A stretch of 62,939 nt of DNA, filler included, from Asterionella formosa (Eukaryota): NCBI GenBank assembly GCA_002256025.1. It is 14 parts of 14 records of this genome, joined end to end, with 100 filler letters (N's around TTAATTAATTAA, not from the genome) between each part and the next. Parts side by side here need not be neighbours in the genome. Positions count along the whole stretch, not along the records: positions 1 to 4,417 come from NKIB01013537.1; positions 4,518 to 8,929 come from NKIB01013538.1; positions 9,030 to 13,440 come from NKIB01013539.1; positions 13,541 to 17,945 come from NKIB01013540.1; positions 18,046 to 22,454 come from NKIB01013541.1; positions 22,555 to 26,963 come from NKIB01013543.1; positions 27,064 to 31,465 come from NKIB01013544.1; positions 31,566 to 35,966 come from NKIB01013545.1; 6 more parts are not named here. One strand, given 5' to 3'. Positions 1 to 62,939 of this stretch are shown piece by piece. The position numbers and the translations under genes were made by a program. The notes under the pieces are model-generated. The model was not told where the DNA came from and made no database searches. It saw only the letters and a program-made list of their open reading frames with translations. Each line of letters starts with the position of its first letter. The stretch's first letter is position 1.

Positions 1-695
1 ATTGCAAAATAGCTAAAATAGAAAATCGGTGGGAACAAAATGGCACTATCCCACAATTACAATATCTCGATCCATGATTTATTGCTGGATCAAAACCGGC
101 ATTATTTGTACTCACCAGTACATCAAACAGTCATAATCTACAACATTTATTGGCTGAAAACAACAAATGATTCATAAATCATGATTCATCTGTTTACAAT
201 AGGCATCATATCATCATTGTCATGACATGACATGTCACAAGTACCGGTACCACTGGTAAAGGTTGTCAAGTAAAATGCATGAATAATGAGCGACTTTAGT
301 CTAAATATATCATATCACATCTGAGACGCTTTCATGTGATTTTATAATGATAAGCATTGAACTCGAGAATGAATTACTTGATGATTCAAAAACCCTTCTT
401 TCAAGTTCAACTCAAATTGAGTGGATAATTCGTTTGCAATGCGCACTTTCATTTATGAAAAAGTAACAATTATGTGGTGTCTATACTTTCATGCGGCTTT
501 GTACATCACGTAAATACTATTCACTATATTCTGGTAAACACGCTTACTCTTCCCAGATTTCATCTCATGTTTCACATGCATTCCTTTTTTTAAGGTGAAA
601 TTACTTGATGTTACAAATAGATTCTTTAGAAGTTCCACTCATCTTTATATATACTAGTAGCAGTCTAGTCGGTCATCCAGTGGCTGGTAGTAGGA

Positions 696-2253
696 TTGGC
701 TATGCCCTTTCCTTCTTGTCACATTTGTACAGTCACACTTGTAGCCTCAGAAACTGGTCCGGACCCACTGCCACATCAAAATATCATGCCAAACAATGAA
801 GAAATAGTTTGTGCATCTCAAAAGAGATGCATGGTAAAGGAGCTACCAAGGTCAACTGCATATAACTGCCCTGGATATGGGTATAGCATTCAAGCTCTTT
901 GCGGGTATTTGCATGAAGAAGCAGATATTCAGTTCAAAACAACATGCTTCCATTGCTATGAAAAGTTTGGTCGCGCCCTGATGGATCCAGATGATGCAAC
1001 TGCATTGCAACAACTACAACAAGATGAAGAGAGGAGACATGATTCCTCCAATCAAGGACAATTGGAGGGCATAGTAGAACTTGCGCATGAAAATATCATG
1101 AATAGCATTTTACCACCAGAGATTGACAAACAAGGCAGCACTATTAGAGAACGTGATACACAAAAAGCGAAGAAGGAAGCAAATAAAATGAAGTCCCTAC
1201 AGCTCATGAATTTAGCAAATGTCAGAGACGAGAACACAAGAGCAAAATCAACAATGAGCTGGCACCAGTCTGAACATGAAGTCTTTCTGTTATATTTGTA
1301 TAAACATGAGGACCAGCTACTAGGACCGGAGATGCTAGCGCAAATCAGATATATCACTGATGATATTGATGACATTCCAAATCATATGAAGAAAGCAAGA
1401 TCAGTGATACGCAGTTTTTCTTGAAAGGGAAGTCTCTACAGGATTGCATCTAATTAAATTTGAGGGCTTAAAGCCTACAGACTTCGCAAAGTATCTTGGG
1501 ACCCTCGGTAGTCCAGTGACAGGCTGTCTACTTAGTCAGAAGATGTATAAAAACAAGAAGACATCACTTTACAACCTGTTTAAGAAGTATAATATGAAGG
1601 CTACAGACGACTTGTTTGATGATGAGCTGAATGATCTCATTGCTGGCGTCAAGTGAATTGCAAATAAGGCAAAACAAAATGGGATGGGTAGCCTTGAGGA
1701 GGGAAAACGTGAATTGACAATCGACCTGTACCGAAAAATAAACATATGTTTGATTGAAGATGGCTCTCCATCAGCTGTTTTTTCACGTGCATTTTTATGT
1801 CTAACATGGAATTTTATGTGCTGTGTTGATAGTACTGGTGGTGTCTGTATCAAGCATTTGGTTTGGAGTCAAGATGCTGTGGGGATTCGATTTTTTCAAC
1901 AAAAAATGATCAAGATGGCTCTAATAATTTCAATCCCCGACACTGCTACTCCAACCCTGGTGAGGATTTTGCATTGTGCCCAATAACTGCATTGCTTGAG
2001 TACATGACATGCTTTCCGGAAATTCTACAAGATACAGATGGTCTATTGTTTCCTGGTGCAGAGCAGGAGGATTGATTCAGAAAAATTATCAAGAGGTGGC
2101 TACATGGACATGAAGGCGATCTAGCTAGATTGATATGAGGTGGAGGATATTGGTACCCACAGCATCAGGAAGAAGGGTGCAACAACATATGCATCGAGGG
2201 GCTCTACAGCAAGTTCATCAAGTGTAGCGATCAACAATCAAGGTGGTTGGACT
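696..2253 (+). pseudogene. Degenerate Crypton-type tyrosine recombinase (stramenopile type)
   Basis: Joining frames gives EGKREL..LY, FLCLTWNFMC(R>C), KNDQDG..PRHCYSNP..CPITAL and EDIGTHSIRKKGATTYASRGST..AINN(R>Q)GGWT (2152-2253). Several frameshifts and stops; truncated before the catalytic Tyr. Confidence 0.8.
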
Positions 2254-2525
2254 ATTACAATTTAATTTAATTTAATTTAATTCAGAATGTGCAAATGTAT
2301 GATGGTTGCTAGATTCAATATAAACATGATAAAATGTAAGAAATAATGATTTTGTAACCAACTAGCTTTATACTGTTGACTAATAACAGAGAGAGATGAT
2401 ATTATGGATACATATTGTCTACCATGAGAAAAGGCAGCATAATATTGTTCTTAATGGTGTGATACTTCCATTGGAAGTGTGTGTACGGTGGTACATATAC
2501 CGGTATACCTATGATAGGTGCAGGT

Positions 2526-2600
2526 TGTTGAGGGGAACTTTGTCATTAACAAAGGTGAGCTACAATATCATGACTACCGGTATGTTCTATGGCTGTCGTT
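2526..2600 (+). repeat. Short interspersed repeat starting TGTTGAGGGGAAC (possible LTR fragment); second copy at 44838-44900
   Basis: The two copies align by eye. Confidence 0.55.
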
Positions 2601-2621
2601 CGATTATCGCAACACTTGGCT

Positions 2622-2662
2622 GGGGGGGGGGGGGGGGGGGGGGTGGGTGTGGGTGTGGGTGG
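2622..2662 (+). repeat. Poly-G / GGGTGT tract
   Basis: About 22 G followed by GGGTGT-like units. Confidence 0.9.
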
Positions 2663-2697
2663 CTATGCTCACATCGTAGTACATCATTATGGATTAA

Positions 2698-3325
2698 GTT
2701 TGCAGCCCCGGCTTAACCCTAGTTCGGAGAAAATATCGCTAGGGTTGTAAAAACGGCGTGGAACAGGGAGTTTCCTACTACCGGTATGCATTCCCATGAT
2801 TCGGCTGTCCATTTGAATATTTGAATTAAATAGGAATCGGGGAGGCTGATAGAGTTCCAATTAAAAAGAACAAAAATGATATTTAAACGTTAATACTTTT
2901 TCTAGGTTGCTGAATGTAGAAATACTTTTGCTCTACGCCAAAACACATATATAAATTTGGAGTTTGCCAACATGTATGCTCATGGCTCTTTTTTATACGT
3001 CAATATACGGTATTTCGGTACTCGGAGCACCAGTTAGTACATAATCTTGGTTCATCACGATGAAAGACAGGATGTACTATCGGTAGTACCAGTACCAGGT
3101 ACTGATTTTACCAACCAGTATTCAGTACATCTAATACGTATGGTTCAAGTGTGGCTGGCGAGATTTTACAAGACCGGGATACTTCAGCGAATCTACCGGT
3201 AGAGCAGGTGAATAAATTCAATTCAAACAATCAGAATATGTGTAGTGACGCAGGAACTTACCCTGGAGTCTTTTCGGACTGAGAATTATTCAGCGAAACA
3301 TACCTACCGGTACGCAAGACTCTAA
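2698..3325 (+). mobile_element. TTAA-targeting (Kolobok-like) family A, left end; interrupted by a Harbinger element
   Basis: TTAA|GTTTGCAGCCCCGG matches the TIR GGTTGCGGCCCCG seen at 44357, 50323 and 57389. The body aligns with 43267-43960. Confidence 0.7.
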
Positions 3326-11206: not shown

Positions 11207-11280
11207 TGATGCATATTCAGTAGGGAATCTAGTTTAAAACCATAGGATGTACTCAGGAAACACTCTGAGCCAAATGCATC

Positions 11281-12386: not shown

Positions 12387-14008
12387 TTCGCCGACTATTC
12401 CGTTGTTTGATTGGTTTTATGGTCCTATGCAGTTACAGAAACAATGAGAAGGAATGATTTGTTAGCTAGTAGTCATGATAGCTTTGTTCCAACAGAAGTG
12501 AATAGGTCCAACGAGCGACAAGAGCACTTACGCAATTTGGTTTGGTTTTGTTTGAGCTGTTGAATCAACTGAGAAAAAAGGAAATGTGCGTTTAGTTAAC
12601 AATTTGTTGTTGTGCTGCCTGCCTGCCTCCCAACGATTGTCATCCAAGTACCACGCACATTGATGGCTTCATTACCTTAAACATTCTCCATCCTTCGAAT
12701 GCGCAATGTGTCGAAGTCACAATGTTTTTCGTTATGTATTGCGTAAACTTTCTTTGCTGTCATGTGCTTTACTACGACGTATCTTTTCATGAAGCAGCAG
12801 GCATTGATTGTTAACGTGACAGAACGATTTGAAAAATATATTGGCCATGAATATAGTAATAAAATTTGTAAATATATATATATATATAGCGTAATACATT
12901 TTATAAAATTCAAAGGCGCTCTCGATATGGAACATCTGATATGGTTGAGATGATCATACTCGCATATACATAATTCGAAAATACTCAATGCACTATATGT
13001 CCATTGTTTTCCACGACTACGTGAACCGTGTAAGTCATAACCGCCAGGGTTATGGTGGCAAATTGTTTAAGCCCCCTTTTTGGGCGGGAGCTCTTCATGT
13101 GTACCGGTACATCATATGACAATAACAATATATCATATATATATACAGAGTACCAGTAGCAGGTAGTAAGTGATATGCTGGTGGGGGTAGTCGGAGTAGT
13201 AAACTAGCAACAGAACACCATATGTTCAGGACTGTTGCTACTGCAGTGGGACAATAAATCATCATAGTTCTAGGATTGTATGATCGTAAAACTAAAACCA
13301 ATAGTCGGAGTAATAAGCGAGCAACAGAACACCATATGTTCTGGCATACCTACCCGGTAGTTATCATGATATTGCTTTTATGAATTTAACTGGCGCGATA
13401 ATTAGCCAGGCTGACGAGTTACTACCGGTACCAGGTAGTANNNNNNNNNNNNNNNNNNNNNNNNNNNNNNNNNNNNNNNNNNNNTTAATTAATTAANNNN
13501 NNNNNNNNNNNNNNNNNNNNNNNNNNNNNNNNNNNNNNNNCAACCTACTCGCGCCACCCAGCCTCGAACACATGAACCGGTATACTCGCAGGCATGCGAC
13601 CACCACGGGCGTGTCTTGCCTTCAGCAAGACTTGTTGTTGAGCATACGCACAGCATACGTATGTACTAGAATATACTACGTCAGCCCAACGTCAGCAGAT
13701 CAGATAACATCGTCTCATCACTTTTATACGAAAAAATGCAAAATACAGTATCATATGCAATTTCAGTTATATAAAAGAATTTCATTACAGGTACACCAGG
13801 GTACTTGTTTTCCCTCATTGTTTGTAACTGACGATTTGAATGAAGGTAACCAGGTACCTGGCACATCAAACATATCACAATTTACTATGTATGATACATT
13901 GTATTGAACTGGCGATTTGAATGAAGGTAAAAAGTGGTGTGATACAAACACATCAAAACAAATCACAATTTACCATATAGCTCACCGAGAAATCTAAAAG
14001 AATTCAAG

Positions 14009-16670: not shown

Positions 16671-17449
16671 TAAAATAGTCAAATTTCACCCCCATATTTT
16701 TAGCGAATAGAAATAAAGTTCATTTTGGAAATACCCTACTGTTCTAGAATTTTACCAGTATAATGATCTAGCTTGCCATTATAGTGTTATGAAGGAATCT
16801 TACAAGAAAACCCTGCATGAATTGTAATGGATTGAAGTGCGAAATTCCTCGTTGTGTGGTGTATATAGGCTAGGAACACCACCCAAAATTAGATAAATAT
16901 CAGCAGTACGCATATCATCACACCATAATGACTAAAATTACCACAAAATCTAAAAGTGTGCAACCTCGTAAATCTCATCATGGCTTCAACTCTCGCAAGA
17001 TCTTACCAAAGAAACATGGTTGTGAGAGATGGATGATCATTTAGATTAACATGATAGAACCAAAGAACTAAATAAGCAACTTTACCAGGTTCTCTTACCA
17101 TGATTACCTGCTGCATTCCTTGGGTTTGGTAAAGAAGGAATCGCTTGCGCAAGGGCGCATGTGATAGTCAGAATAAGAATACCTGGTACCAGCTACCTGG
17201 GTTTAAGTGCCCGTCATAATCGTAGTATATTTGTCAAGAATTCGTTTGGACCTCGCATATCAATTGCTTCAAGTTCTCATCTGTCCGGTGGTCCTCCTCT
17301 TGTTTCAACTCATTTCACAGGAAGGTCCGGTAATCAGCTAATTGCGCGCACTAAAAGCTTAAATTCCACCCAGCGGTTTCGTCTTGCCATTCGGGTACTT
17401 CTAAGTAATTTTTAGGCTCTAAGTAATTTCTTAAGTAATTTTTATTTAA

Positions 17450-18778: not shown

Positions 18779-19212
18779 TGTTAAAGTATTACCTTTTTGA
18801 TAGATCTATATCATTAGACAAAGAAGACTATAGATAGAGACGTTCGTTTCTCTTTCCGTTTCGATATTCTTATTGTGAGTTTACTAATCTAGTTTAAGTT
18901 GTTCTGTTTGAACAAACAAACGAACTATTCTCCAAATGCTGTTTGCATTTCTAGAAACATACAATCATAGATAGACCCATGTCTATCTCACACTTACTGA
19001 TCATAGGTTTTTAACCATGATCATTGAATTTCAAACTACCGGTATTGGTCTTCCGAAATAGCTTATATTGTCTGGCTCATAATTGGCAGAGTAACAACGG
19101 TATAATGTGTGGTTGATGAGAGCTTGGTACATCAAAGTTGACTCATTCGAATCGTTTGACTCGTTTGACTCCGAGTCATAACTACCGGTACGTAGATGAG
19201 CTAACTTTAACA
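18779..19212 (-). mobile_element. Copia 3' LTR (434 bp)
   Basis: TGTTAAAGT...ACTTTAACA termini, adjacent purine tract and RNase H end; second copy at 55699-56119. Confidence 0.92.
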
Positions 19213-19700: not shown

Positions 19701-19990
19701 TTGTGATGCGAGGTCGATTTTAGATAAAAAAACCGTTTTTGTACGTGACTTTTCGTACTTCGGAGTTTCCCATCAACTCCCTCTGCTACTTTTTGTACCT
19801 TACAAACGGTTTATGTGTAAGCAGATATATATTTGTTTAGACCCCACTTACCGGCACTTTCATCATTTTCAAATAGTTCCAATGGAATAATCGTTATTAT
19901 TATTATTATGTACCGGTATTCAAGGGCAGTTCATTCATGTTTTTCAAATTATTTCCAACGGACTTTTACCAATCTGGTTGCGCATCTTCC

Positions 19991-20375
19991 CATGACTTGC
20001 GCGAGGCAGGCCATTCAATTTTTCAAATAATTTGAATGAAATATTCAACTGTTCATGACTTGCGCAAGGCAGGTTAATCATTGTTTTTTTCACATAATTC
20101 CAACAGAATTATTAATATTCACTTGCGCAAGGCAGGTTAGTCATTGTTTTCACATAATCCCAACAGAATTATTAATATTCAAGTGTCCGTTAAAAATCTA
20201 GGTGCAACTAATCATGACTTGCGCCAGGCAAGTTGTTCATTTTTTTTAAATCATTCCAATGGAATTTTTCGGTGTAAGCATTATTCACATAAAATTCAAC
20301 CAGAATTATAAATACTCAAGTGCCCGCTAAAAATTCGCCGGTATGTACAACTAATCATGACTTGCGCCAGGCAAG
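19991..20375. repeat. Five degenerate repeats with core CATGACTTGCGCNAGGCARG
   Basis: Cores at about 19991, 20054, 20121, 20213 and 20356. Confidence 0.75.
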
Positions 20376-20676
20376 TCGTTCCAATGGATTTTTCGTCGTA
20401 CGCACAATCTTCTTTGCTTCTAAGGATGCTATTTGGAGTTCTTTTATAATCGGGCAACAGCATACCGGTATTTTTGGAATACTCTCATGCGTGTGCTGGT
20501 TTGACAATGACTTTGGGAGTGATTATTTTATGCATCCATATTGAGCGAAAAGCCTTGCGTACCCCTAAGAATGGAACCGGTACGAATATATTAGATTTTG
20601 AGTCATAATTCATCATCGTCCATAAATTTCGTCCTCTCTTCGCCTTCGAGACCGTTAACATCAAACAAGGCAAACC

Positions 20677-22327: not shown

Positions 22328-22454
22328 ATGATTGGACTCTTGACAATTTTTACTGATCTATATTTGTTGAACAATACTTTCACTGGCACACTTCCCACAG
22401 AGATTGGACTATTGACAATTTTTACTGATCTACCGGTATATTTGTTGAACAATA
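22328..22454 (+). pseudogene. Detached extra 72-bp LRR units downstream of the LRR gene
   Basis: Same unit as 21960-22220; runs into the contig end. Confidence 0.75.
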
Positions 22455-23869
22455 NNNNNNNNNNNNNNNNNNNNNNNNNNNNNNNNNNNNNNNNNNNNTT
22501 AATTAATTAANNNNNNNNNNNNNNNNNNNNNNNNNNNNNNNNNNNNNNNNNNNNTTCACTTCGTTCCTTGCTGATATTATGATCCCAGAAAATAACAAGC
22601 TGCTGAAAAAACAATGTTCTGTACAAAAATATATCATACTTGGTACCAGGTACCGGTAGGAGTACTCCTTGGTATCATTTTTTTAGAGGATTTACCGGTA
22701 ATCTGGTACTGGTACTATGTAGAGACGATGATTTTGTTGATTCAAAAAAGAGCAAGAAGACATTCATTTTGCTGTTGCTTCTCAAGTCTGATTCTGGTAC
22801 CGGTACCCCTGGTGCTGGTACAGTAGGAGGTGGTTGATGGTGTGGCTGTGCGGCACCGGATCTGTCGTCTGGCCTGTTGCTCGGGAATATGTGCGATACC
22901 AGTAGATATATATATATATGTCTACCGGTAGCTGGTTGCAACCTGACGCTCAATACCGGTAATTGGATACGTTGCCTGAGTATAGAGTTGTTCTGCATTT
23001 AATAATCAAGAGTAAAACTTTTTGATGTGCACACAAAATTAACGCAATATTTGTTCTTTTTATGGCTGGGTGGACGAAGACTACTGGTAAAGTTTGGGTA
23101 GACAAAGTAGAGCTGGTATGTTATTTTTTTAGCTTTCGGTTGGATGCAGACTCTATCATGTCATTTCACTTGCTTCATTCCATCTGACAATGGTGGTGAA
23201 TATCTCCAGATCTACTTTGTCTCCCATGTGCACCGCTAGCTGTATCTGACCATTTTGACCATCATGAGCCAAAGAGACATTGGTGCACACGGCAAACAAT
23301 GCACCCACCATCTGTTTATATTGACTTGTTTCAAGGTTGGTGCCATAAGCAAACATGTGCTTCATGATCACTGGCTACCAGCAGACCAATTGCAGTTATA
23401 CATACTCCAGAAATACTCAATTGAGGATGAAGCATAGTTTAATTTAGCTTCGATGATAAGGGTGGTCAACAAGGTGCTTCCTCTCATGAGTTGTGCACCA
23501 AACATTGTTCTAGAGATTCAAGGTGGCCAACAAGTGCAAGTATACAGGCATTCCTTCCAAAATCGGAAATGTCGCTATCTCTTCTTTGTCACCACCAAAT
23601 TGAAATCCGTTCCTGCTCTCCCTTCACATTTGAAAGTGTCATCAGCCGTGGGAGCAAGATTGGTGTGTATTGACAAGGCTTTGAGCAGGCAGTCAGAGAG
23701 TACTAAGCCATTGTCAATGAAAATTTCTAAACAAGAAAAAATAGTGATGGATGATGCTATCAACAATGACAATGGAGATGGATTGGAAGAGCCAAAAAGA
23801 GAAAGAGGGGGAGCAATGAACCAGAACCAATTATATTAAGTCCTGCTAAACATCATCAGATGAAAACAG

Positions 23870-25420
23870 ACATCTGCAAAAAAACTATCATATTTCCATG
23901 ATGCATCATTGGATTTTCATCATCTGATATAATTTTTTGTTATATCATCTAATAATTTTGATAAATTCCCTTGTATTTTAAATAGTAAACCTTTTGACTA
24001 CGTGTATTTAATAATAAATTATTATATGCATTGTTTCTATTTGATTCCTGTATTTGAATTTCATGGTAGGATAATGTACCAGCTAAAGTAAGCAATGTAA
24101 TTTGGCTCGTCATTTCCATCCATCATCACTTCGATTTTTGCAACAACAACGAAATAATACCGGTAGTGCTTAGCGATGATAAGTGGAATGATTGTTTGCG
24201 ATAACGTCTTCAATTGTTGGTCAAGTGTTCATTATATCTTTGATTAGTCGTCATGTGCAGTGAACCTATGTTCATAATCATTCAATTAAGCACACAGCGC
24301 ACATAGTAAATCCGTTTCGTTGACCACCAGCATTACAATCTCGCCAATCAGCTTGTGAGCAAACACATTCTATTTGTTCTTGTTGACATTTTCAATTCTC
24401 ACATGATACTACATCAACAATTGAGATTCAACATAGAAGGAGATACGAAAATGTAACAGACTGCTGTCCACATAGTTATAGCTATAGAATGATTCTGATT
24501 ACAATTTCTTTTTCATATCGCTCGTTTCCGCAATTGGGATACTGTACTTTATTCACTGTAGAACTTGTCCGCATCTTTGTTACCATCAATAGAGCGACAA
24601 GTGACTCTCTTCATTGTTGTTTGCTCATGATGGAAAACCCGCCTGGTATCGGTATCATAAACAATATGGGTACGAATGTCCTTCATCATTATCATTGTGG
24701 TTTGCTGTAGGAAAAATTTGATGTCCGTATTGTCATTTGCTTGCTTGTTTGAACTGTCCATTGCCTCAAACCTGCTAAGCGTGTGTGTACACACACTGTT
24801 GACTTGTTTTCATTGGTATGTTGTTCTTGTATTCACTGTTTGAACTTGTCCGCATCTTTGTTACCATCAATAGAGCGACAAGTGGCTCTCTTCATTGTTG
24901 TTTGCTCCTGGAAAAGTCGGTGTCCGCGTCATCCTCATCAACAGAGGGACAGGTGTCCTTCATCATTGTGGTTTGTTGCTGGAAAAATTGGTACCCATAT
25001 CGTCATTCGCTCGTTGGAACCACTGTCTGTTGCCTCAAACCTGCTTAGCCTGTGTGTACGTACACTGTCGACTTGTGTACATTACAGCAGTGACTTAGCT
25101 ACTAAAGTGCGTGTTGTAATATCATACTCTGTAGTACGATGCAGAATACAGTTCCCAATCAACATAAATAAATGATTGATAAGATGATAATGTGATATTT
25201 CAATAGGGTTAATTCGATGCATACATCACCAATATGTGATACGTAATATTGAATAATGTTTATCACATAGCTATGATACATTGATCATAGAACTATGATG
25301 ATTTCTTGAAATTTTTATGATATATTTTTAATCAAAATATGATCATGTTAAAATAAAACAAAAATAATAAAATACGATAGAATATTTACACAAGTGTTAT
25401 GAACAAGATAGAATGAAAAT
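23870..25420. repeat. Unclassified interspersed repeat Y (about 1.5 kb, with internal degenerate subrepeats)
   Basis: Reverse complement of about 33470-34980. Confidence 0.85.
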
Positions 25421-32150: not shown

Positions 32151-32338
32151 CTTGTTGGTGTAGAAACGACGTTATGAAAATAGCTAAGCAATGACTGATT
32201 CAATTAAACCTTGCAATGCAGGGTTTTTGATTTTATGAGTCGCAGCAGGTTGATTCTGCAAACAAGTCATGACTCGAGTCATCTCGAAGGTTTCGCTTGC
32301 ATACATACAACATGTCGTCTACCGGTATTTCCTCTGTC

Positions 32339-41165: not shown

Positions 41166-41167
41166 TA

Positions 41168-43266: not shown

Positions 43267-44356
43267 GGCGGCTTAACCCTAGTTCGTAGAATATATCGAT
43301 AGGGTTGTAAAACGGCGTGGAACAGGGAGTTTCCTACTATGAATTCCAATGATTCGAGTGTCCATTTGAATATTTGAATAAAATAGGAATCGGCGCCAGA
43401 TTGGTAGAATTCCAATTGAAAAGATGATATTTAATCATTTTTACTTTTTCTTCGTTGCTGTCTGAAGAGATAGTTTTGCTCAACACCAAAAAAAACCAAA
43501 AAATTAGGAGTATGCCAATATGTATTGCTCATGGCTCGTGTTTATACGTTTATATTGAATCTGAGTTGCTGTATGTAGTTTCAATAACACTCCATGCACA
43601 TAGGTATATACTCGTGTATGAATCACTACCGGTACCGGAGTCCCAGAGCAATGTTATCTCGGTACTTGGAGTACCAGGTAGTACATAATCTTGGTTCGTC
43701 ATGATGGAAGACAGGATAAAACTACCGGTAGTACCCGGTAGTACCGGAACTGATATTACCAACCAGCATTCAGTACATCTAATACGTGTGGTTCAAGTGT
43801 GGCTGGCGAGATTTTACAAGACAGTGATACCTCAGCGAATCTGGAGCAGGTGAATAAAATCAATTCAACCAATCAGGATGTGTGTAGTGACACGGGAACT
43901 TACCCTGGAGTCTTTTCGGACAGAATAATTCAGCGAAACATACCTACGCAAGACTCTAAGTATACGAGAACGTTTTTGCACGTGCAAATTCTGATTCCAA
44001 TATTTTGGCAACTGTAGAAAAAGCCGAACGGGTCGACATTTTGGAGGAGCATTGCTCTACATCTATGGGGTTTCATAAAGAATGAAAGAGATAGCCGTGT
44101 ACCCTAGCTATAACGTCAGGATTTAACTTCTGCAGAGAAGTGGCAGTTATCCCTTGTAGATTTTTTAAAAGCTTGATGGCCCCCTTTTCTGAGTATTTTT
44201 TGGATAGTTACAATTCCAAGAGGGATAACTGCCACTTCTCTCCAGAAATGAGGTCCTTACCATATCAGAAAATAGATCATACCCCTAAGTCAAGGAATGA
44301 CTGTATCTAAGCATATGCAAAGTGGTCGTATTGGTGAAAGCTAATTTTACATTTAA
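43267..44356 (+). mobile_element. Kolobok-like family A, non-autonomous copy
   Basis: TTAA|GG..CGGCTTAACCCTAG start; aligns with 2698-3325; ends at an internal TTAA occupied by a second copy. Confidence 0.7.
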
Positions 44357-45820: not shown

Positions 45821-47272
45821 GCAAGACTGCGCCAGATTTTTCGTGTAGATTGTAGGTTCTGTTGATACGAAGAAGAAGTCATGGCTGCGCTCAGGATTTT
45901 GATCCTCTGAACTCACAAAAACACCAACATTCAACACCACTGTGAACAACTAATTTTCAACATGGGGACGACCCTTACAACGAGTATCCCCCGCCCTTCC
46001 AGATTTTCAGCTGCCTCACTGTAAGCAAATCTTTTATCAGCTCACATAGGGTTTGTTGCACCAACAGAAGGTGGAATGATGCAACATTGAGATTGTAAGA
46101 AGCAATGGATGCTTTCAAGGTAATATTTTTTCTTCCTATTTTTGCTATCATATTACCAAGCGAGTGATAGTTCATAATGATATGCTGCTGTTCTCAACAT
46201 TCATTTGACATTTGAACAGGCCTTTTCAGAAAAGGAGTGTTCTTTTGAAAGCAGGAATGATAGGAGGTGAAATGATGCAATATGAAGACCCGCAATGGAA
46301 GATTTTACTAAGGTGTGCTTAATGCTCAGTTTTTGTCTTCACATCAGCAAAGCGAGCGATAAATCACACGCTTTTGTTATTGTTCTCTACATTTATTTTA
46401 CATTTCAGCCGTCCATTTCACAACAGGAGCATTCTTTTGAATGCATCAGTGAGTTGTGATGCTGCCTGGTGGCTAATGCCGGTGTCTTGCCGTCAATTTG
46501 ACTGCTCCGTGAAACAGTTGAATAAAACATGTGTGTGTTGCTTTCTGTTGTTGCTAGTTCTATTCAATGAATTACTGACACGCTGTTGTTATGTAAATCT
46601 TTGCAGGTCGATGAAGAAGTCATTTCAAGGACAAGAAGGAAGCCAGTGTGATGTTTTCAAGTTGCAATTTCGCACAATGATGCCTGTTCAAGAATGAATA
46701 ATTTTTTCATTCAGAATGAATTGCTTCTGTTTGTCTTGAATTGTGCTTACAGACGTCTCATAATGCGCTGCCTTCTCAAGACTGAAGATGCCATTCTGAA
46801 AGAACTGCTTTGTTCGATTGCATATTGAGATTTCTTTCCCATGTAATGTGAAATACCTGTAGTTTAATTAGTAATCAACATATTTGATAGTACTTTTAAA
46901 TTACGTGAACAAAATTACAGAATTACGTAAACAAATTTAATACACTACATGAGCTATATTATAGAATTACGTGAACAAAATTATAAGGCAATGTGAAGTA
47001 AATTACAGAATTAATTGAAGTATTTCAATTAATTAGGTGAAGTATTTCAAATAATTATGTGAAGGTGGCTGATTACGTAATATTCTACCGGTAGTGATGA
47101 TCAGGAATGCATGCATGATACTCTGATCAAATAATTAACGTGATGTATTCAGATAATATATAGATATATTCAAGTAAGCATTTTGATGTATTCAAATAAT
47201 TCATGTGATCCATTCAAAATCAACTAGGCTTATTTACGTGATAGTCACTTCACGTAATATGCGGCTTAGATG

Positions 47273-47620: not shown

Positions 47621-49159
47621 GGCCGTTGCTAACGGTGGACCAAAACGCAAACCAAACAGTGTTTTGGTTTCGGTAACCCTAAAAAACGATGCTAACGGGA
47701 GTGAAAAACCCAATGCAAACGCATCACGTTTAGGGGATTCCGTGCCCATATCCCAATAAGTTACCCAAACGCATTACGTTTAGGTTTTTTTTCTCCCAAA
47801 GTTACCTAAACATAGGATTTTATATTGACTACTTTGAATGTAGTTACTAGAAACCCAATTATTATCATCGTAGAATCAGTACATATAGGACGCATCATTT
47901 ACCAGTATATCATTCATAGATACAACAATAGCAATACGGTACTCTGGTACCTGGTACCAGGTACCAGGGGACCACACTGTCAAGAACAACAACAACAAAT
48001 CATCTCGGATTTCACCACAATCAACATATCATCAAACCCACATTTCACCAACATGGCACACATATGTACCATATCAACGATATTGTGGAACTTGTCCAAC
48101 CAACTCGCCAAGATCATCTACTCCAAGGCAAGTGCCCTATGTTCCATGGTTTTACTCCATCTGCCTGGCGTACCAAGGTTTGATATTCAATTGCTACTTT
48201 TTATATAGAAACTTCCTTTATTTAAACTCCTTCCATTTGCACTTCATACTTGTAACTGTATCGGGCGTCATCACTTATCAAGAAACCAACTCGATCCACC
48301 AGATAATCAATTTGCTTGTCATCACAGTCCGCAGGTCCAGTCCAGCCGCTTGTACCTGTTGTCGCTCGCTTCTTGGAATGCAACAGCTCCACGTCATATG
48401 ACTCAATCCAGACTTCAAACACATTATCTTCCTCTCTTGCATGAGTTATCACGCGGGTCTCAACAAACACTTGCTTCCCAAACTTTCCTGTCAGCCCTAG
48501 AATAATCTTTTCTGCGATCTCCAGATCGGAATCGTCACCGGTACAAGCCACAACGACATGGCCACGAAACTGCTCTTCGAACTCCGGATCACGATCGTAG
48601 TCATACTTAATTTCCTTGTCAAGCATCTCTCTGTCCTCCCTTTCGTCTTCTGACAACTCATCGTCTTCTCCAATTCCATTTTCATGATCCATTTCCATAT
48701 TCCAGCGGCGAACATCCTCCAATGCATCTTGAATCAATGGTTTGTCTGGATGAAGCGGCATTTCAAAGCTATTTGAAAAGACACATCTTCATCTTTGATA
48801 TCATTGTCGTCAAAGTCCACCCAAGGCTGCTCTTCCGACAGAGAATCCGCGTTCTTCTCTAGGCATGTTGTTGATCATGTAATCAATGGGATCAAAGTTG
48901 TTGACAACAAGAGAGCAGCATCGCTCAAATTGCGGGAAAAACTAACTAATTCCCAAATAGGAATCATAATATTTCATTTATAAAAGTAGTCTAATAGAAA
49001 TATTTTACTTTTTTTATAATGGTTTTGTCATCCTACGTCACAGTAGATGGGTGCTTGACAGCATTTAGGATTTCCCAAAAACCGATAGCATCGTTTTTTC
49101 GTAAACCAATCCAAAAAAAGTTTTTGGGTTTTGGTTTGGGTCAATGGTTAGCAACGGCC
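47621..49159. mobile_element. Harbinger-like element (1539 bp, TIR GGCCGTTGCTAAC) carrying a host-like gene fragment
   Basis: TTA|GGCCGTTGCTAAC...GTTAGCAACGGCC|ttttTTA. The flanks rejoin to match uninterrupted sequence at about 17380-17449 (inverted). Confidence 0.8.
48222..48865 (-). pseudogene. C-terminal fragment of an acidic hypothetical protein
   Basis: 179-aa protein-like ORF. The upstream part (LEKNADSLSEEQPWVDFDD) is in another frame, and no N-terminus is present. Confidence 0.65.
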
Positions 49160-50372: not shown

Positions 50373-51418
50373 TTAGTTCTTGAAAGGGAAAACTCTCATG
50401 GCTTTACCTTCCATTGTTTTCTTTGCAAGCCCATACTAGTATTTTGAAGCGGATTTGAAGAATGTTTGCTGTGATAGCCAAACAGGAGGGTTATATAATT
50501 TCTCAGATGTAAAAAATGTTTTGCAATGTGTAGGAATGGATCATCATTTTCTTCTGTTCCAAGAAAACATCTGGAAGTTGAGAAAGATCATATGTTCTTG
50601 TGGAACTCCATCAATAACATATAGGATGTTATCCGTTGTCAACAGTCTTTTAAGAAGCCATAAATTATCTGTCATAAAAGTAAGAAATTCATCAATGGTG
50701 GCTGTCTTGTTGGTTGTTTTATTGTTGTTGTTGTCATGTCACTCAAAATCAAATGGAAAACGGTTCTTCCATAGTCATGTTGCTGGCTGTGTTGTATTCT
50801 CAAAATTCCTTGAGACTGCAAATGATTTTTTGTTAAACAAGCAAGCCAGACTGTAGCACCTTCTTCCTCAATTTACTGAAGACAAAATTGATGACACTGT
50901 CATCTATTTGCTAATTTCCTGTATCAACATGAGAAGTTATATATTGTTTGAAAGATTTGATTGTTTCATCAGCTCCTTCTTGTTGAATAATTGACTGGAT
51001 GTGTCTGTCAAAAGGTTTTCGATGGAGACAGGAACGTGAGTCCAAATAAAGGAATACGGGAATACTGGTAGGGCACGCCTACTATTCTACAGTGCTGAAG
51101 GGGTATACGGTATTCTAAAAAGAGGAATACGGGAATACTAGGGCAAGCCTGCCTACTATTCGACAGTACCTGGTACCAGGTACTGTTAACCAAGGATGAT
51201 GTTTTTGACATCACACGATCGCCAGAATGCATGCCAGATGTCAAGTCTCGCACTGTACTGGCACAACCGGAGTCTGTTTGATTTTCCGTTGTCGGTGCAC
51301 TCTATTGTATGCTATCTACCAGTAACAGTCTGAATGCTCTGCAACCTGATCATCATACATCATTTTATGAATCAGGAGGAATAGTTCCAGCCCAGCCAAA
51401 CCAAACGCCAACAAAACC

Positions 51419-54845: not shown

Positions 54846-54887
54846 CCATGCATGGTTGTTTTTAGTACCACGTACGTATGTCGACTA

Positions 54888-55535
54888 CCGTATACTTCAT
54901 TGTCCTGGACCCCCCCTATGGTTGCTGGACCCCCCTGTACATTTTTCTCGAGGTGGAACCAAACACCCAATAATTTTCTTGTCATAGACAAAGTAACGTG
55001 CCATCATTCTTTTTGTCCTCGTAGGCACTAGTATGTAATAATTTAGCTACCATTTTGCGATTCTTTTGTGCATACAAAACACAAGAGACGACAGGTAGTG
55101 GCTGTGAGCAGCTGGAGAATCCTTCATGATGTTGTCGCAACCTTGACCATGACGAAAATACCAATTATCTCCACGAAAATAGAGAACGACGCTTTGCTAC
55201 TTGCTACCTGTATTAAGAATGACATGGAAAATACAATCGTAAAAGAAGTAAAGTAATAACACTAATAATGACAACGAAAATTGAGATCGCCGATAACAAC
55301 ATGAAGTCGCGTTTTTCTTGCGAGGTGAAGAACTCTCTCATTTTTCACAAGACGGAAATAATTGTCATATTAATACATCTTAGAAAAATGTGCGCTATCC
55401 TGTAGAACTAAAGAAATTTACTTAGGTCCATTATAAGGGAAATCTCTTCATTGTCCTGGGCCCCCCTTAAGTAAAATCAGTCAAATTCAGTCACGGCAGT
55501 GTACATTGGGGGGTCCAGGACAATGAAGTATACGG
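54888..55535. mobile_element. Tc2/pogo-like MITE, 648 bp, perfect 28-bp TIR, TA target duplication
   Basis: TA|CCGTATACTTCATTGTCCTGGACCCCCC...GGGGGGTCCAGGACAATGAAGTATACGG|TA, with subterminal TIR-motif copies at about 54925 and 55446. Confidence 0.95.
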
Positions 55536-55698
55536 TAGATGACTGCCGGTACCGGTAGAATATCCGTTAAGCATCATTACATACATGCATGGTTTAAGCT
55601 ATGCTTTAACGCTTACTTTGAACACGTTATAATATTATCTCTGTAGACTCGGTATTATTTTTACGAGACCTGAAATGTTGAATTATATCGTTCACATA

Positions 55699-56327: not shown

Positions 56328-57384
56328 GCTTCCTGCATTTCAACCCTAAGGCAAAAATTAAAATATTACTTGGGGTTGCCGAAATTCCCTGGAACTAAGA
56401 ATTTAGAGGAGCTATTTTGGAATGACATGATTCCGTTTGAAATACTCAAATCAGTGGAAATTTGCGCATATTTACATAGATTCCTTTTCGAAATAGCTAA
56501 ATATATATATAGACAATGATCATCACTGTATGTATGCATATGTACCGACAATTATTTTTCTTATATACGACCCGGAGGCTCGGCAAATTTTTGAAAGTGC
56601 AATCAATAAGTGGTACCAGGTACCACACATATGATGTCCAATGATGATAATCTACTGGTACCCGTACTGGATATAGTACCGGCCTACCGATACACCCAAA
56701 GAAATGTTACATGTGTATCCAATGTGGCCGGTGTGGGTTTGCAATTCCTCTCGCAATCAAACGGAGTCGAGTATTTCGCCATAGCCGATGAGGACATCTA
56801 TAGTCATAGTACTGCGCGCACTTACAATGGAATTTTTACAACTAAATATTGCATACAAGACTACTACCATTCCAATGATGACGTTTCGGCACTAAGTGGT
56901 TCTGATTCCGATATTTCGGAGACCGTAGAAAAGGCCGATTTTGTCGAATTTTGGGACAACGATAGCTCAACGTTGGCTGGGTCTGAAGCCGATTTAGATA
57001 CATAGGTAACCTTCAAATAGACTAGCATCAGTATATGACTTCTGGCGAGAAACTGCAGGAAGGATCTTCTTTTTTTACTATGCCAAATAAAATGATTTCC
57101 CCCGAAATTTCCAGTCTTTATAGCATACCGGGTAGTTTAAAAACCGAACTTCCTTTCTGTAGTTTCTCGCCAGATCCTATATCCTGACGATATATAGCGT
57201 TGACTTGTACCCCTACTTTTGTCAATGACCGTATCTAAACATATGGAAAGGGTGTATATAGGTGAAAGCTCCGTTTAGCGATACACATTTATGTTTTACT
57301 CGTAAGTGTGTGTTTGAGTACTCTCACTCAATATTTATTTTTAAACCCTACCTCTAAACTAGCTAGGGTTGAAATGCAGGAACC
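56328..57384. mobile_element. Kolobok-like family B non-autonomous element (1057 bp), TTAA TSD
   Basis: TTAA|GCTTCCTGCATTTCAACCCTA...TAGGGTTGAAATGCAGGAACC|TTAA (TIR 20/21). Confidence 0.85.
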
Positions 57385-57536: not shown

Positions 57537-57543
57537 TTTTTTA

Positions 57544-58449
57544 GGGTCGTTCTTATCATTTTCGATTTGGTATCATTTTTTTGAAAAAGTATCATGTAAC
57601 GGCTACTCGATTTAAACCGAAAAAATCCATTCTCCACAAAAATAAAAATGAAATTGTATCACCAAAAAGTATCACGAAAATTCAACGGTTATGGGCTGGC
57701 TACAAACATGTGCTTTTCCTTCCTGACTACCCGTACATAATGGTACCAAACCAGTCCTCAAACCATGCAAGAAATCTACGCGAATTATGTATATGGACTA
57801 CTATAGTCAATGGTATTTGCACATGTATTTGTTGTACCGGTAGTCACGTCATCATTTTCGTATTCTATTGCCTAGTACGTGCTGGACGAGAGATAGTAGA
57901 ATGTACCGGTAGTGACAGCCAAAGCCAAAGTATTTGCACAGCTAGTATATGTCGTAGTCACGTGATCATTTTCGTATTCTATTGCCTATTACCTTGTCAT
58001 GAATTCCCGGACCAGGTACCAGGGTACCAGGTACCTGTAATTAGATAGCGGGTATGTCTCTATGCACATGACTCAATCTGTTCAATTCTCGACTCAGTGG
58101 TTTTCGTTCTTTGGTGTTGTGGCTGAACATTACCACACATGGCCGCTATAATGATTGTATTGTGCTTCTTTGATGCACACCATAATAATTTTTGTGTATA
58201 TTATCTAGATGTCAATAAAAGTACTGCCCTGCAGGCGTATTATCGGTTATTTTATTAGTGACAACGGAAATGATACCCGCGTGAAAACGTCAGTATCACT
58301 GATACCGTTTTCGGAGGGGGCAAAAAATGGTATCAATTTTGTATCAATGATACAAAATTGATACCATCAAGTTACCGTTGCTGATACCGTGTTTTGATAC
58401 CAACCGTCATTTTTTGCCCACAACCCGGAAATGATACAGCAAATTCGGA
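57544..58449. mobile_element. Non-coding Harbinger derivative (GGGTCGTTCTTATCATT family)
   Basis: One end matches 3326 and 43159. The other end (about 58240-58449) matches 41184-41395 inverted and is cut by the contig end. Confidence 0.85.
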
Positions 58450-59130: not shown

Positions 59131-59569
59131 GGAGGAGCATTCATAATTTGAGTTTATTTACCTGGTAAAGTTTCTCCTCTGTATCAACCCAAAAATTCCT
59201 TGCTTGGCGGTATATCAATGTGGGTACCGGTACATCGCTAATAAAATAATTTAATACGGTAAAACGCCTTCCTTTTTTGCTATTGTTTTATGTCGCGGCA
59301 TGTGCAGAAAATTCTCTGTAGTATTTCCATGTAATTAACCCACAACGATCAATTCGAAACATGGGTACCGGTATCGAAACCCGTAACAGGACATCCTTTG
59401 TGCTGTTCGAACATAACTACAGTCATGGCGGCTGATGGAGTCGCTTTGTTCGAAAACGAACATCATAGACCAGTGTTGTTCTTCAAATCGTTTTTAAGCA
59501 CCAGTACTGCGTGAAAACGGCATACGCTCAAATTTTCGGCTAGTTTGAGTGGCGTTGCGGCGAAACTTG

Positions 59570-59890: not shown

Positions 59891-59921
<31 letters not shown>

Positions 59922-59975
59922 AGGGGGGGCGGGGGCCAATTGAATTGTAGATGCTCTCAAGAAGGTCAATCCTCG
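59570..59975 (+). pseudogene. Degenerate RI-like LRR repeats with a poly-G insertion
   Basis: NSIG.DGA.AI...KV...LTTLDL units, same family as 7500-7790. Confidence 0.75.
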
Positions 59976-60082
59976 CCTGTTTTAACATCTTGACAAGCAA
60001 TGTTTACACCAATTGTAGTGCAACTGGTATTGATTTACTAATTGAATAACTTACTTTTAACTAATGATTATTAAATATAAAT

Positions 60083-61354
60083 TTACCATCCCTTTCCATA
60101 AGAATCAAGCAAAAATGAAACTAGAGATGGAGGGATACGATTCTTTCCATAGGCCTTTGTGTTAATGGCATTCCCAGCTCGTTTCCTGGTCGCAACTGAG
60201 TTTTTCTTGGGAGTGGAACCAGGGGACAGGTACATATGAAGTCTCAAAGCTCCATTGGTGAGGTGATTGTCCATAGCACCCGCATGAACTGTATCACCCC
60301 GCATTAAAAATATGCACTTGAAAGGAATGCAAAGTAGCATTGCATGTTGATTCTCTGCTGCTTTACCTTTTCGATCTAAGTCAAAGTTCCAGTCAAATGA
60401 CTCTCCATCCCAGACATTTATGGAGAACCCACCAGAACCGAGGGACATATCCAATCCCCAAGGAAGGCACATGTCAACATCATTGATTACCAGCTCTGTA
60501 TGCTGGCTGGTAGTCAAAATGTGGCTCTTGACGAACCGTTGACAAATTGACATTAGTGTGCAATTTTGTATAGGTATGTGGCATACCTTTGCTGACATTG
60601 GTTGCGTTACCTGCTACAAATGGGGGCTGCATAACAGAAAAGGGAATGGTGACCATTGACAACATTTTCCAAAAGTGGTTCACATTGTCGTGTGATGTGG
60701 GGTCCGAGATCTTCATTTTGTCAGTGAATGGGCCATGATATGCAACCAACGACATTGCCCCGCCTGTCATCTGCCTGAAGCATTCAGCAATGATCCTCTT
60801 TGTCCGGAAAGAAGCCCTAATAAGCGACCAAGTCTCCTGATCTGTACCGACTTGACACATAATCTGCTGTTGGCCGATGTCCAGGAAAGGACAGTTTTTG
60901 GTCAAAAAAAAGGTGTCTGGAAGAAAGGACAAGTTTAACACAAATGCCTTATCAGGTGGAACACCAGAAATCTGGAGCATCGTATCATCTTCCGTGATAT
61001 AAGACACAGCTTTCATGGCTTCAGCAATTTTTTCAAGAAAGAAGAGGAGATCATCAATGCGTCGACATTTGAATGAGGGCCTGGAATCGTCTTTGAAGGA
61101 GAACTTCATAGCCGCTTCACGTTTGCGAGGTGTAATGACAAGTACATGCCATCCCAACTTCTTTCCGCCCTTTTTTTGATAACTAATAACGACCTGATTT
61201 TCTCCACTCTTTCAAACATGATGAGAAGTAGTTTATCCACATCCAACGCCACATTCTTGTTGGCTCCGAGGTGACCTTGTAGGAAAAAGCGAAGTAACTT
61301 ACGGTCTGAGTTCTCCATATTTTTATATAGCAACACTCCAAGTTTCCACTTCAT
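60083..61354 (-). pseudogene. Frameshifted gene ending in a 2OG-Fe(II) dioxygenase-like domain
   Basis: Overlapping ORFs join to give RQEPHFD (HxD) ... RGDTVHAG ... RLHMY. Confidence 0.55.
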
Positions 61355-62093
61355 GACAAAACGATTGGCGTTTTCACGAAGTGGGACTGGAATAATTGAG
61401 ATGTCTTTCCCAAGTCAGGTGGCAGTTAAGCTTTTCAAGACGAACATTGTCGTTTTTTGGTAAAAAATGTTGAATGAATATGTCGTATGTGGGTGAGCAG
61501 CAACATGGAATACCACATCACTATTACCGGCGGTTCTGCACAGCTGGCCACACTGGTATACACGAATCAAGAAGCAGTTGCATTCTACACAATTGCGACA
61601 TAAAACAAAAGTAAAATTTTTAATGTGGCCATAAACAGTGGTCATTACAAGGAACACACATACCGGTATACCCAGTACCAGGTACCAGTAACATGATATG
61701 TATATATGACAATGTAAGTAACAGGACAATGGGTATTTACTAACTCTGGCTGAGTGCGGCTAGAGTTAGATAATCTTTATCGGGGTGAGTAGAATGTATT
61801 GAAAAGTACATTACCTACACCAATATAATATAATATTTTGATAATATTATTTATTGAGGTATTCAATTCCATATTAGTGGTACTAATTATTGTTACTACT
61901 ATTCTGCTCGTCTGAAGCAAGCATTGCGGCTAATGCGCGATCGCTTACTTGCTTCTGTACACTCAAGTTGTGCGGTATACAGATAATCAGGAAAATAATC
62001 GAGAAGAATGCTGGGCGACTCGTGATTTAGACCACGAGCAACGAACTGTGCGGCAATCCGATCAATCTTGATCTTAATCCAGACCTCATCCTT

Positions 62094-62370
62094 CTAAAGG
62101 GATTTGAAGTATTCAGGTAAAGGAGAAGTATTGTCCAAAGGAACGATTTTCTTGATTTTGGAAGGCTTCCCGGCATGTTCGAGAACTGATTTATTGGAGA
62201 CCCTGTCGTACACATTGACCAACGCTTTTGCCTTCGTGTAGTGTACAAACTGGCCAATTTCGCCAGCATAATTACCCTTCAATACGGAAACTAGATCACT
62301 CGTCTCCAGAGAAAGGTATTGATCTTCGTTCCGAATAGACGACAGGTTGGGGTTCGGGAGGCACTCATAA
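62094..62370 (-). pseudogene. Short KOW-like coding remnant
   Basis: SDLVSVLKGNYAGEIGQF resembles the KOW motif. Confidence 0.25.
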
Positions 62371-62939
62371 TTATCATGTACTCTACTACCGGTATATAGC
62401 AGTATTTGTGTACACGATAAACTATTGCATCATGTACCATGTAAACATAGTAGATATCGCATTTATGACTATATTTAACCCCCTACTCAAGATTCCATAA
62501 AAATATTTACCACGACAATTAGTACCTACACGAAACTCACTACAAAATTGATGTAGAGTATTTTCTTGCATCTTGAAATGTTGTAGTACCCTCTCCGAGA
62601 ATACTGTCGCTCAAGTTTTCTCATCTATTTCTACAAAACATAGAAAACCTTATCTAGTCAAAGTTATCAAGCTAGTCACCGCGGACTTAGCCCTGTCACG
62701 TTTTTGGTCATATCTTTGAAACTGAGCAACTGACGACCAAAAAACTTTCAGCGCCGATTTCAAGTTTTTGTTGTATGTTAATCTGCATACACATGCGAAA
62801 TAGTAATTGTTCATTGTCAATATTCGTGAAGCTATTCAAACCCATAATTTCGTCATGGTCAAGATGGAGTTGCTGTCTCATCGACCCCATACCACACCAG
62901 GCAGCTGTACAAACACTCATGGAGCAAAGGACTGCCTGA

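Follow-up and report, generated by a model that had tools for sequence, protein, structure and literature searches.

Recurrent CCGGTA insertions at TA in the diatom Asterionella formosa as probable excision footprints of Tc1/mariner-like elements

Excision footprints of cut-and-paste transposons are textbook knowledge and are normally rare, heterogeneous and found locus by locus. Sleeping Beauty leaves the footprint TAC(A/T)GTA and Tc1 leaves TACATGTA. The internal eliminated sequences (IESs) of Paramecium, which are TA-bounded and transposon-derived, are removed genome-wide by a precise, developmental excision that leaves a single TA. Little is known of the DNA transposons of diatoms, a group of major primary producers. 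The present work concerns an 8-letter palindrome, TACCGGTA, in DNA of the diatom Asterionella formosa; the whole stretch analysed, 62,939 bases in length, is referred to as the window. An earlier note on this DNA had read the palindrome as an insertion of CCGGTA after a TA left behind by departed transposons. We consider it probable that the copies of TACCGGTA (hereafter scars) built up over a long period as footprints left on excision by TA-specific cut-and-paste elements of Tc1/mariner-like type.

The diatom case resembles the Tc1/mariner systems (Tc1/Tc3, Mos1, Sleeping Beauty, ZB, Stowaway/Osmar) in the duplication of TA and in a footprint made of both TAs plus 2-4 nucleotides (nt) of the element ends, and TACC(A/T)GGTA and TACCGGTA would be the analogues of the Sleeping Beauty and Tc1 footprints. 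It departs from canonical Tc1/mariner elements in having CCG or CCA ends instead of CAG, and in showing about 1 scar per 1-2 kb, with one type dominant, scars nested and resident elements very few. The likeness to ciliate IESs lies in TA boundaries and genome-wide removal; in the diatom, however, the scar remains and there is no sign of a germline/soma separation. Nuclear dualism is not known in diatoms. Tc1/mariner elements are said to generate footprints of 2-4 bp (PMC7913693), and Stowaway/Mariner excision to leave the duplication together with short end sequences (PMC4561436). A rice survey describes 94 excisions between the O. sativa and O. glaberrima genomes, 8 of them perfect and most with deletions or filler DNA (PMC4423477). 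Rice shares with the diatom the excision of DNA transposons as a genome-wide source of small indels, Mariner/Stowaway excisions being detectable by comparison (PMC4423477). The mechanism is familiar; the density, stereotypy, nesting and scarcity of resident elements are not. No report of this scar phenomenon in diatoms was found in full-text searches of the literature, and the supplements of diatom genome papers and subscription journals may hold transposable-element libraries. Matches listed in the literature for the string TACCGGTA appear to be primers, constructs or barcodes.

Abundance of the palindrome and its insertion at TA

The window is composed of 14 unlinked A. formosa pieces of about 4.4 kb each, not one contiguous 62-kb run, and the pieces are joined by 13 spacers of the form N44-TTAATTAATTAA-N44, one per ~4.5 kb (the first at 4418-4517). 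Because it is a scattered sample of one diatom genome, the motif density within it is a genome-wide estimate and not a local oddity; because its pieces are joined end to end, repeat pairs in different pieces are not physically linked. The linker also contains the source of TTAATTAA, and the enrichment of that word in the window 8-mer table is therefore artificial.

The palindrome occurs 34 times in the window, from position 242 to position 62387, or once per 1.8 kb. The expectation is 0.24 copies from 100 dinucleotide shuffles of the window (highest shuffle, 2) and 0.56 copies under an order-2 Markov model. These counts bear out the earlier note, which had given about 34 copies where base composition predicts about one and had proposed the comparison with a Markov background. 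Once two poly-G runs are set aside, TACCGGTA is the most enriched 8-mer of the window. It supplies 34 of the 107 occurrences of CCGG, and every other TA/NN context contributes at most 3. The flanks differ among all 34 sites, so the excess does not consist of copies of a single repeat. Counted per piece, in order, the sites number 6, 0, 2, 0, 5, 6, 0, 4, 1, 2, 1, 0, 3 and 4, and scars and scar variants together come to about 65. Pfam-supported open reading frames (ORFs; 9,354 bp) contain none of the 34 sites, against 5.1 expected (P=0.006). Sites located by motif count, with flanks or ORFs where noted, are the following (strand. for these and all scar sites below):

242..249, TACCGGTA scar, then CCACTGGTA (with flanks)
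2498..2505, TACCGGTA scar
13102..13109, TACCGGTA scar
19911..19918, TACCGGTA scar
20463..20470, TACCGGTA scar ~200 bp upstream of the LRR ORF 20677-22254 (with ORFs)
22798..22805, TACCGGTA scar in the context GGTACCGGTACC (with flanks)
32320..32327, TACCGGTA scar
35838..35845, TACCGGTA scar 290 bp upstream of the AAA ORF (36137-38260), CCGGTAG 9 bp ahead (with flanks)
38714..38721, TACCGGTA scar between convergent AAA and LRR ORFs (with ORFs)
57904..57911, TACCGGTA scar
59225..59232, TACCGGTA scar
59366..59373, TACCGGTA scar
62387..62394, TACCGGTA scar

In an effort to see how the palindrome arises, the 14 pieces were aligned with one another by self-BLAST. The alignments contain 154 gaps, nine of them six bases long, and seven of these nine read TACCGG/CCGGTA, at six distinct sites (2779/2781, 3194, 3305, 19037, 19183 and 22431). 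The earlier note had expected a spike of CCGGTA insertions at TA from a tabulation of indels between copies. A paralogue alignment covers 11 of the 34 sites, and at 8 of the 11 the motif is an insertion relative to the paralogue. Six of the testable sites are clean 6-base inserts, the paralogue carrying a single TA (2779, 3305, 19037, 19183, 22431) or TG (3194), and two lie within bigger gaps that enclose the motif (24158, 13 nt; 47086, 9 nt). Another site is common to both copies, intact at 43723 and decayed to TATCGGTA in the paralogue at ~3078, and one more shows a 3-nt gap (57835). Sites recorded through paralogue alignment are:

2575..2582, TACCGGTA scar; paralogue ~44885 has a single TA, 8-nt gap
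2779..2786, TACCGGTA scar, clean 6-nt insert versus 43269-43555
3194..3201, TACCGGTA scar, 6-nt insert versus 43655-43960 (paralogue TG)
3305..3312, TACCGGTA scar, clean 6-nt insert versus 43655-43960
13571..13582, decayed or compound scar GAACCGGTATA versus GTATA in 26708-26786
19037..19044, TACCGGTA scar, clean 6-nt insert versus repeat copy 55699-56119
19183..19190, TACCGGTA scar, clean 6-nt insert versus repeat copy 55699-56119
20334..20343, decayed scar TTCGCCGGTA; the sister tandem unit reads TC--TA
22431..22438, TACCGGTA scar in one 72-bp LRR-type unit, not in two sister units
24158..24165, TACCGGTA within a 13-nt insert versus copy 34978-34182
33841..33848, TACCGGTA, no gap versus two paralogues
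43723..43748, cluster TACCGGTAGTACCCGGTAGTACCGGA; first unit common with copy A (3078, decayed to TATCGGTA)
47086..47093, TACCGGTA within a 9-nt insert versus 11273-11574
57835..57842, TACCGGTA, 3-nt gap versus a local repeat copy

The individual comparisons that had been named beforehand held, two of them as compound events. The inserts at 2779, 3194 and 3305 against the copy at 43267-43960 are all of 6 nt, and the insert at 22431 against the neighbouring LRR unit is clean; since both sister LRR-type units lack it, the polarity at this site is gain. The sites 19037 and 19183 were likewise found to be clean 6-nt inserts, and the description of their partner as a sister long terminal repeat (LTR) was not established: 18779-19212 and 55699-56119 (434 and 421 bp) are copies of one repeat, 92.6% identical, and because they lie in different pieces they are not demonstrably two LTRs of one element. 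Differences are also present at 2575 versus 44885, where the paralogue has a single TA, and at ~13575 (13577) versus 26740, but both are compound, with an 8-nt gap instead of a clean 6 in the first and a 4-nt CCGG gap in the second. Scar formation may fairly be called a major mutational process where indels of at least 4 nt are concerned; of all paralogue gaps the scars are only a minority.

Other differences between the copies were noted in passing. Compared with copy A, 43556-43654 is an additional segment of 95 bp; as it is not TA/CC-bounded, it was rejected as an element of this type. Gaps of 4 bases are notably frequent in the paralogue alignments (25 of 154, against 15 two-base gaps), and many read GCTT, AAGC, CAAG or CAGC; several represent one site met in multiple alignments and some are tandem 4-nt duplications. 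A second type of small footprint might be represented here. The tandem units of 63-72 bp at 19991-20381 each carry the palindrome ACTTGCGCAAG/ACTTGCGCCAGG, and one of them holds the decayed scar TTCGCCGGTA (20334).

Variants, decay and independent occurrence of the scars

Related forms of the palindrome are found in the window, namely TACCAGGTA (9 copies), TACCTGGTA (5), TACCCGGTA (2), TACCGGGTA (1) and TACCATGGTA (1), the 7-base form TACCWGGTA amounting to 14 copies. The series fits what end joining of 2-3 nt remnants would be predicted to give. Analysis of the single-base neighbours of TACCGGTA demonstrated an excess of the CpG-transition products TACTGGTA/TACCAGTA (17 versus 2.6 expected) and of TATCGGTA/TACCGATA (6 versus 1.5 expected), with most other classes near background. 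This excess of decayed neighbours, mainly by CpG transition, indicates that the scars are real, old and of a range of ages. It also bears on the proposal that selection for a function, for instance as a regulatory or protein-binding site, has enriched TACCGGTA. The word is indeed a perfect palindrome, lies outside Pfam-supported ORFs and stands upstream of genes in several places (20463, 35392, 35838), but it arises as an identical 6-base insert with TA duplication inside decaying repeats and pseudogenes, decays freely and makes nested arrays, and we hold selection for function to be very unlikely.

Nested or adjacent scars are common, for example CTGGTACCTGGTACCAGGTACCAGGGG at 47944, TACCGGTACCCCCTGGTACCAGGGTACCAGTA at 35392, TACCGGTATACCCAGTACCAGGTACCAGTA at 61661 and GGTACCAGGTACCGGTAGG at 22642. 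GG, which indicates nesting, precedes TA in 10 of 68 half-sites, against a background of 5.7% (P=0.005). Sites recorded by the nested-scar scan, from flanks, or by both, with other sources in brackets, are:

3078..3101, cluster TATCGGTAGTACCAGTACCAGGTA, homologous to 43723-43748 (scan, alignment)
13423..13437, nested scars TACCGGTACCAGGTA (scan, motif count)
22642..22660, nested scars GGTACCAGGTACCGGTAGG (22644 + 22651), gap-free in X2 and X6 contigs (scan, contigs)
22693..22714, TACCGGTA then CTGGTACTGGTA, gap-free in X2 and X6 contigs (flanks, contigs)
35341..35355, nested scars TACTGGTACCTGGTA (scan)
35392..35423, scar cluster TACCGGTACCCCCTGGTACCAGGGTACCAGTA, upstream of the AAA gene (flanks, scan)
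43627..43638, TACCGGTACCGG, double scar with one decayed end (flanks, alignment)
47944..47972, array CTGGTACCTGGTACCAGGTACCAGGGGAC, nested 7-nt scars (scan)
51167..51182, nested 7-nt scars TACCTGGTACCAGGTA (scan)
56614..56622, TACCAGGTA 7-nt scar (GGTACCAGGTACC) (scan)
58010..58036, array GGACCAGGTACCAGGGTACCAGGTACC (scan)
59159..59167, TACCTGGTA 7-nt scar (scan)
61661..61690, cluster TACCGGTATACCCAGTACCAGGTACCAGTA (flanks, scan)

The arrays at 47944-47972 and 58010-58036 could grow by slippage, in the manner of a microsatellite of GGTACC(W) units. Slippage cannot, however, create the first unit, and in most of the 34 cases the insert stands singly at a TA in unrelated sequence, which makes such growth a highly improbable origin of the motif. 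The base ahead of TA is biased: T occupies this position in only 4 of 68 half-sites (P=5e-5 against a background of 24.5%) and C occupies it in 25 (P=2e-4 against 18%), and the commonest half-site is AC-TA (14/68; TC, 8/68). A bias of this kind is as would be expected of a transposase.

Contigs (Logan) of four sequencing runs were compared with one piece, 22555-26963. Record 9 of run X2 and record 17 of run X6, which come from other studies, are gap-free over 22555-22747 and 22555-22757, with 1-2 other letters; both thus contain the scars at 22651 and 22693, which are no assembly artefact. Record 25 of run X7 spans 22754-22980 with 14 other letters and only 2 gap letters, so that the three 6-base inserts within the span (22798-22954) are not missing. 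Two of these, recorded by motif count and contigs, are:

22923..22930, TACCGGTA scar, spanned by X7 record 25
22954..22961, TACCGGTA scar, spanned by X7 record 25

Record 10 of X2 has a net 6-letter deletion somewhere in 22807-23129, beside the (TA)n run at 22905-22920; either an alteration of that run or an empty site at 22923 or 22954 could account for it.

Occurrence outside A. formosa was approached with the protein of the AAA ORF as a query. The metagenome scan returned 61 loci, with 343 kb around AAA homologues, none closer than 75% identity. Together these diatom loci contain 6 copies of TACCGGTA against 1.58 expected, or about 1 per 57 kb, where the window has 1 per 1.8 kb. Three of the copies belong to a single locus of 13 kb (L021), which also carries two CpG-decay forms. 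Loci L015 and L016, of identical DNA, carry TACCGGTACCTGGTA beside GTACCGGTGGTAA, and the scar cluster GTACCGGTGGTAATACCGGTACCTGGTA is identical at L015:1860-1905 and L016:95-140, in contigs from different samples; the same scars are accordingly present in a marine-type diatom whose AAA gene is 60% identical. Since scars occur in other diatom loci at lower density, the process is not unique to the species and is far more intense in A. formosa, and this distribution suggests a widespread family. A sequencing, adapter or assembly artefact might be suspected from the AgeI site in the motif and from the odd poly-G runs of the window. It is contradicted by the same sites in the contigs of other studies, by mutated copies, by the position of the motif inside contigs and away from piece ends (the earlier note had said that confinement to read or adapter junctions would tell against its reading) and by the same scars in unrelated metagenome contigs of other diatoms, and we regard it as extremely improbable.

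Resident elements and the origin of the scars

A TA-flanked inverted-repeat scan together with sequence reading identified one candidate source element still in place, and an inverted-repeat scan gave a weak candidate of a second type:

54886..55537 including both flanking TA, strand., candidate resident element of 648 bp with CCGTATACTTCATTGTCCTGGACCCCCC ends
55544..55557, strand., double scar TGCCGGTACCGGTA including 55550, 8 bp right of the 648-bp element (flanks, sequence reading)
17081..17190, strand., weak candidate of a second element type, TA|CCAGGTTCTCTTA...TAAGAATACCTGG|TA, ~102 bp, terminal inverted repeats 14/20

The 648-bp element reads TA|CCGTATAC...GTATACGG|TA, that is, TA|CCG...CGG|TA, and its full 28-bp ends are TA|CCGTATACTTCATTGTCCTGGACCCCCC ... 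GGGGGGTCCAGGACAATGAAGTATACGG|TA. These terminal inverted repeats (TIRs) are perfect and lie at 54888-54915 and 55508-55535; their inner part recurs at 55446-55466. No ORF longer than 69 amino acids (aa) is found inside, and the element is short and non-coding with TIRs and a TA target-site duplication, as in a miniature inverted-repeat transposable element (MITE). It is the only TA-flanked element found in the window with outermost TIRs and CC...GG ends. Its flanks, AC-TA and TA-GA, are among the commonest scar half-site classes. The earlier note had deduced CCG...CGG ends on a TA-duplicating element from the scars alone, and an element with such ends is present. TA insertion with TA duplication and terminal inverted repeats, features of the IS630/Tc1/mariner (ITm) superfamily, are both seen here. 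The excision-footprint rule, by which both TAs and 2-3 end nucleotides remain, would agree with the CCG...CGG ends, as a matter of consistency, no excision having been observed. A degenerate Copia ORF may be the host of the element: there is one weak match (RVT_2 positions 3-37, E=0.009), the right-hand fragment giving no match, and a location within a Copia reverse transcriptase (RT) gene is put forward tentatively. The self-complementary word AAACCATGCATGGTT stands on either side of the element (54843-54859 and 55579-55595), about 30-45 bp outside its ends, and may reflect a preferred target or belong to some larger structure.

The 7-base scars TACC(A/T)GGTA would require a second end type, CCA...TGG, which the earlier note did not contain and for which the ~102-bp sequence at 17081-17190 is the weak candidate. 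The Mos1 mariner 5' repeat also begins CCAGGT. Further inverted-repeat candidates were rejected: the pair 47512/47530-49306/49324 is internal to a long inverted repeat from a different family, one with TGTGTGG as its true end, the pair at 44258-44555 lies inside a larger palindrome, the repeats at L057:854-1368 and L001:197-1857 continue past TA, and the pair 32320-33848 is merely two scars.

From these ends a course of events can be proposed. The element would insert at TA and duplicate it. At excision the transposase would cut two or three bases inside each 5' end, the donor retaining TA-CC(G) and (C)GG-TA, and the 3-nt 3' overhangs (CCG on each flank) would anneal through CG, or a 2+2 blunt join would be made, to give TA-CCGG-TA, CCGGTA being the net gain. 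From a sister lineage with CCA...TGG ends, TACC(A/T)GGTA would result. CpG transitions would convert old scars to TACTGGTA or TACCAGTA, and TAs made by old scars would be hit again, producing GGTACC-type arrays. Because scars would persist as elements move or are lost, a long accumulation could reach about 1 per 1-2 kb, mostly outside genes. The enrichment, the insertion at a single TA, the decay, the independent data, the ORF avoidance, the target bias and a resident element with fitting ends give this account direct support. From the sequences we infer excision as the source of the scars, as well as the cut positions and the superfamily.

Several observations weigh against the excision-footprint account. 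The palindrome at 33841 aligns gap-free with two paralogues, so that insertion is not demonstrated there, and several sites are compound, with gaps of 8, 9 or 13 nt. The 648-bp element is single-copy in the window and has no paralogous empty site, leaving its own mobility to be judged from its structure; a few bases beyond its TA are partly complementary too (6/8). Its TIR had no match in the 61 other diatom loci or in viral_contigs, and the multiple copies of a MITE family were seen neither there nor in the window. The ITm superfamily is defined in addition by a DD(E/D) transposase with paired-type HTH DNA-binding domains. Pfam detected no Tc1/mariner, pogo or IS630 domain in 64 window ORFs (14 + 50; ~62 kb of genome) and no Tc1/mariner-type transposase in 97 of the 241 ORFs of at least 200 aa from the other diatom loci. 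No series of empty, filled and scar alleles was found in the contigs of the four runs for the piece 22555-26963. The ratio of scars to elements is unusually high, ~65 scars or variants to 1-2 elements. Finally, the diatom scars are far more stereotyped than those in the rice survey, which gives 8 perfect excisions in 94 (PMC4423477).

The last two of these points would be accounted for by dedicated host purging, in which a domesticated or permanently active TA-specific transposase excises elements genome-wide, in the manner of IESs but imprecisely. One good and one weak resident element beside ~65 scars or variants, and scars highly stereotyped, unlike rice footprints, are what such purging would leave. 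A low-copy element active for long would nevertheless give an identical picture, the scar ages are varied as slow accumulation predicts, and nothing here points to such a host gene or to a germline/soma difference; we judge purging unlikely. A more far-reaching version, which we consider rather unlikely, is that a long-lived TA-specific excision machinery of this diatom lineage is efficient enough to remove nearly every element of the family, leaving about 1 scar per kilobase, in an imprecise purge that would rival ciliate IES removal in scale. The scars, as CpG-containing palindromes that lie mostly outside genes and are favoured for re-insertion, would then be self-renewing landing pads and possibly regulatory raw material.

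The scarcity of resident elements could also mean that the 6-base insert arises without a full cycle of insertion and excision, through a cut by a TA-specific nuclease or transposase followed by capture of short templated or abortive-integration products. The re-use of TAs beside older scars (the 10 of 68 half-sites with GG) could in that case reflect an enzyme that recognises end-like sequences. The 648-bp resident element, however, has exactly the required ends, and we know of no mechanism that adds a constant CCGG and a duplicated TA without transposon ends, so that this route appears distinctly unlikely.

If the scars are excision footprints, they are a countable fossil record of cut-and-paste activity, in which number, age spectrum, target preference and gene avoidance can be read. 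Excision can then be a substantial source of 6-7 bp insertions, in frame and giving rise to CpG and AgeI/KpnI palindromes. The motif is in addition a simple marker with which the family may be found and transposition measured in populations. The question raised is why elements are so scarce relative to scars.

Other features of the window

A PIF/Harbinger-like family is represented by several copies whose TIRs start with GGGTCGTTCTTATC (41166-43161; 3325-3597, together with the ORF 3632-4294; 42973-43160; 57540-57806; 58225-58449). One copy of 2 kb is perfect at its ends and contains two ORFs (289 and 161 aa) without Pfam match, another copy precedes the DDE_Tnp_4 ORF (3632-4294), and the family flanks are CTA / TAA. 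Like the presumed scar source, this family is a cut-and-paste DNA transposon; it differs in its GGG...CCC ends. It was rejected as the source of the scars, since these ends (GGGTCG) do not fit and the matching TAGG..CCTA scar is not enriched. Pfam analysis of the window ORFs gave the following features:

3632-4294, PIF/Harbinger DDE_Tnp_4 ORF
9761-11206, Copia-type RT
20677-22254, one of several LRR ORFs
36137-38260, AAA ATPase ORF, 707 aa
within pieces, integrase fragment

Among the best 120 matches of the AAA ORF, all homologues with names are from diatoms, for example Seminavis, Cylindrotheca, Thalassiosira, Cyclotella and Nitzschia, and the closest relatives are 84% identical. Sequencing runs that contain the window DNA carry the labels algae, freshwater metagenome or lake-water metagenome.

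Poly-G runs of 22 and 26 G occur at 2622-2643 and 59896-59921, and degenerate G-rich tails read TGGGTGTGGGTGTGGGTGG and AGGGGGGGCGGGGGCC; the runs could be genuine G-rich tracts, or they could have entered the assembly as artefacts of two-colour sequencing. A repeat at ~23000-26800, with copies at 9030-9420 and 33459-34978, gave no Pfam match and has an internal period of ~280 bp (24533-25083). Its contig word depth exceeds that of unique flanks by about a thousand-fold or more in all four runs compared; possibly it is a satellite, or else a non-autonomous element of very high abundance. On the minus strand at 28702-30770, a 437-aa ORF without Pfam match adjoins an ORF with a weak GCR1_C match (E=5e-4), a pairing that calls to mind tyrosine-recombinase elements of the Crypton type. 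At 11665-12386 lies a near-perfect tandem triplication, with a period of 260 bp and an identity of 98-99%.

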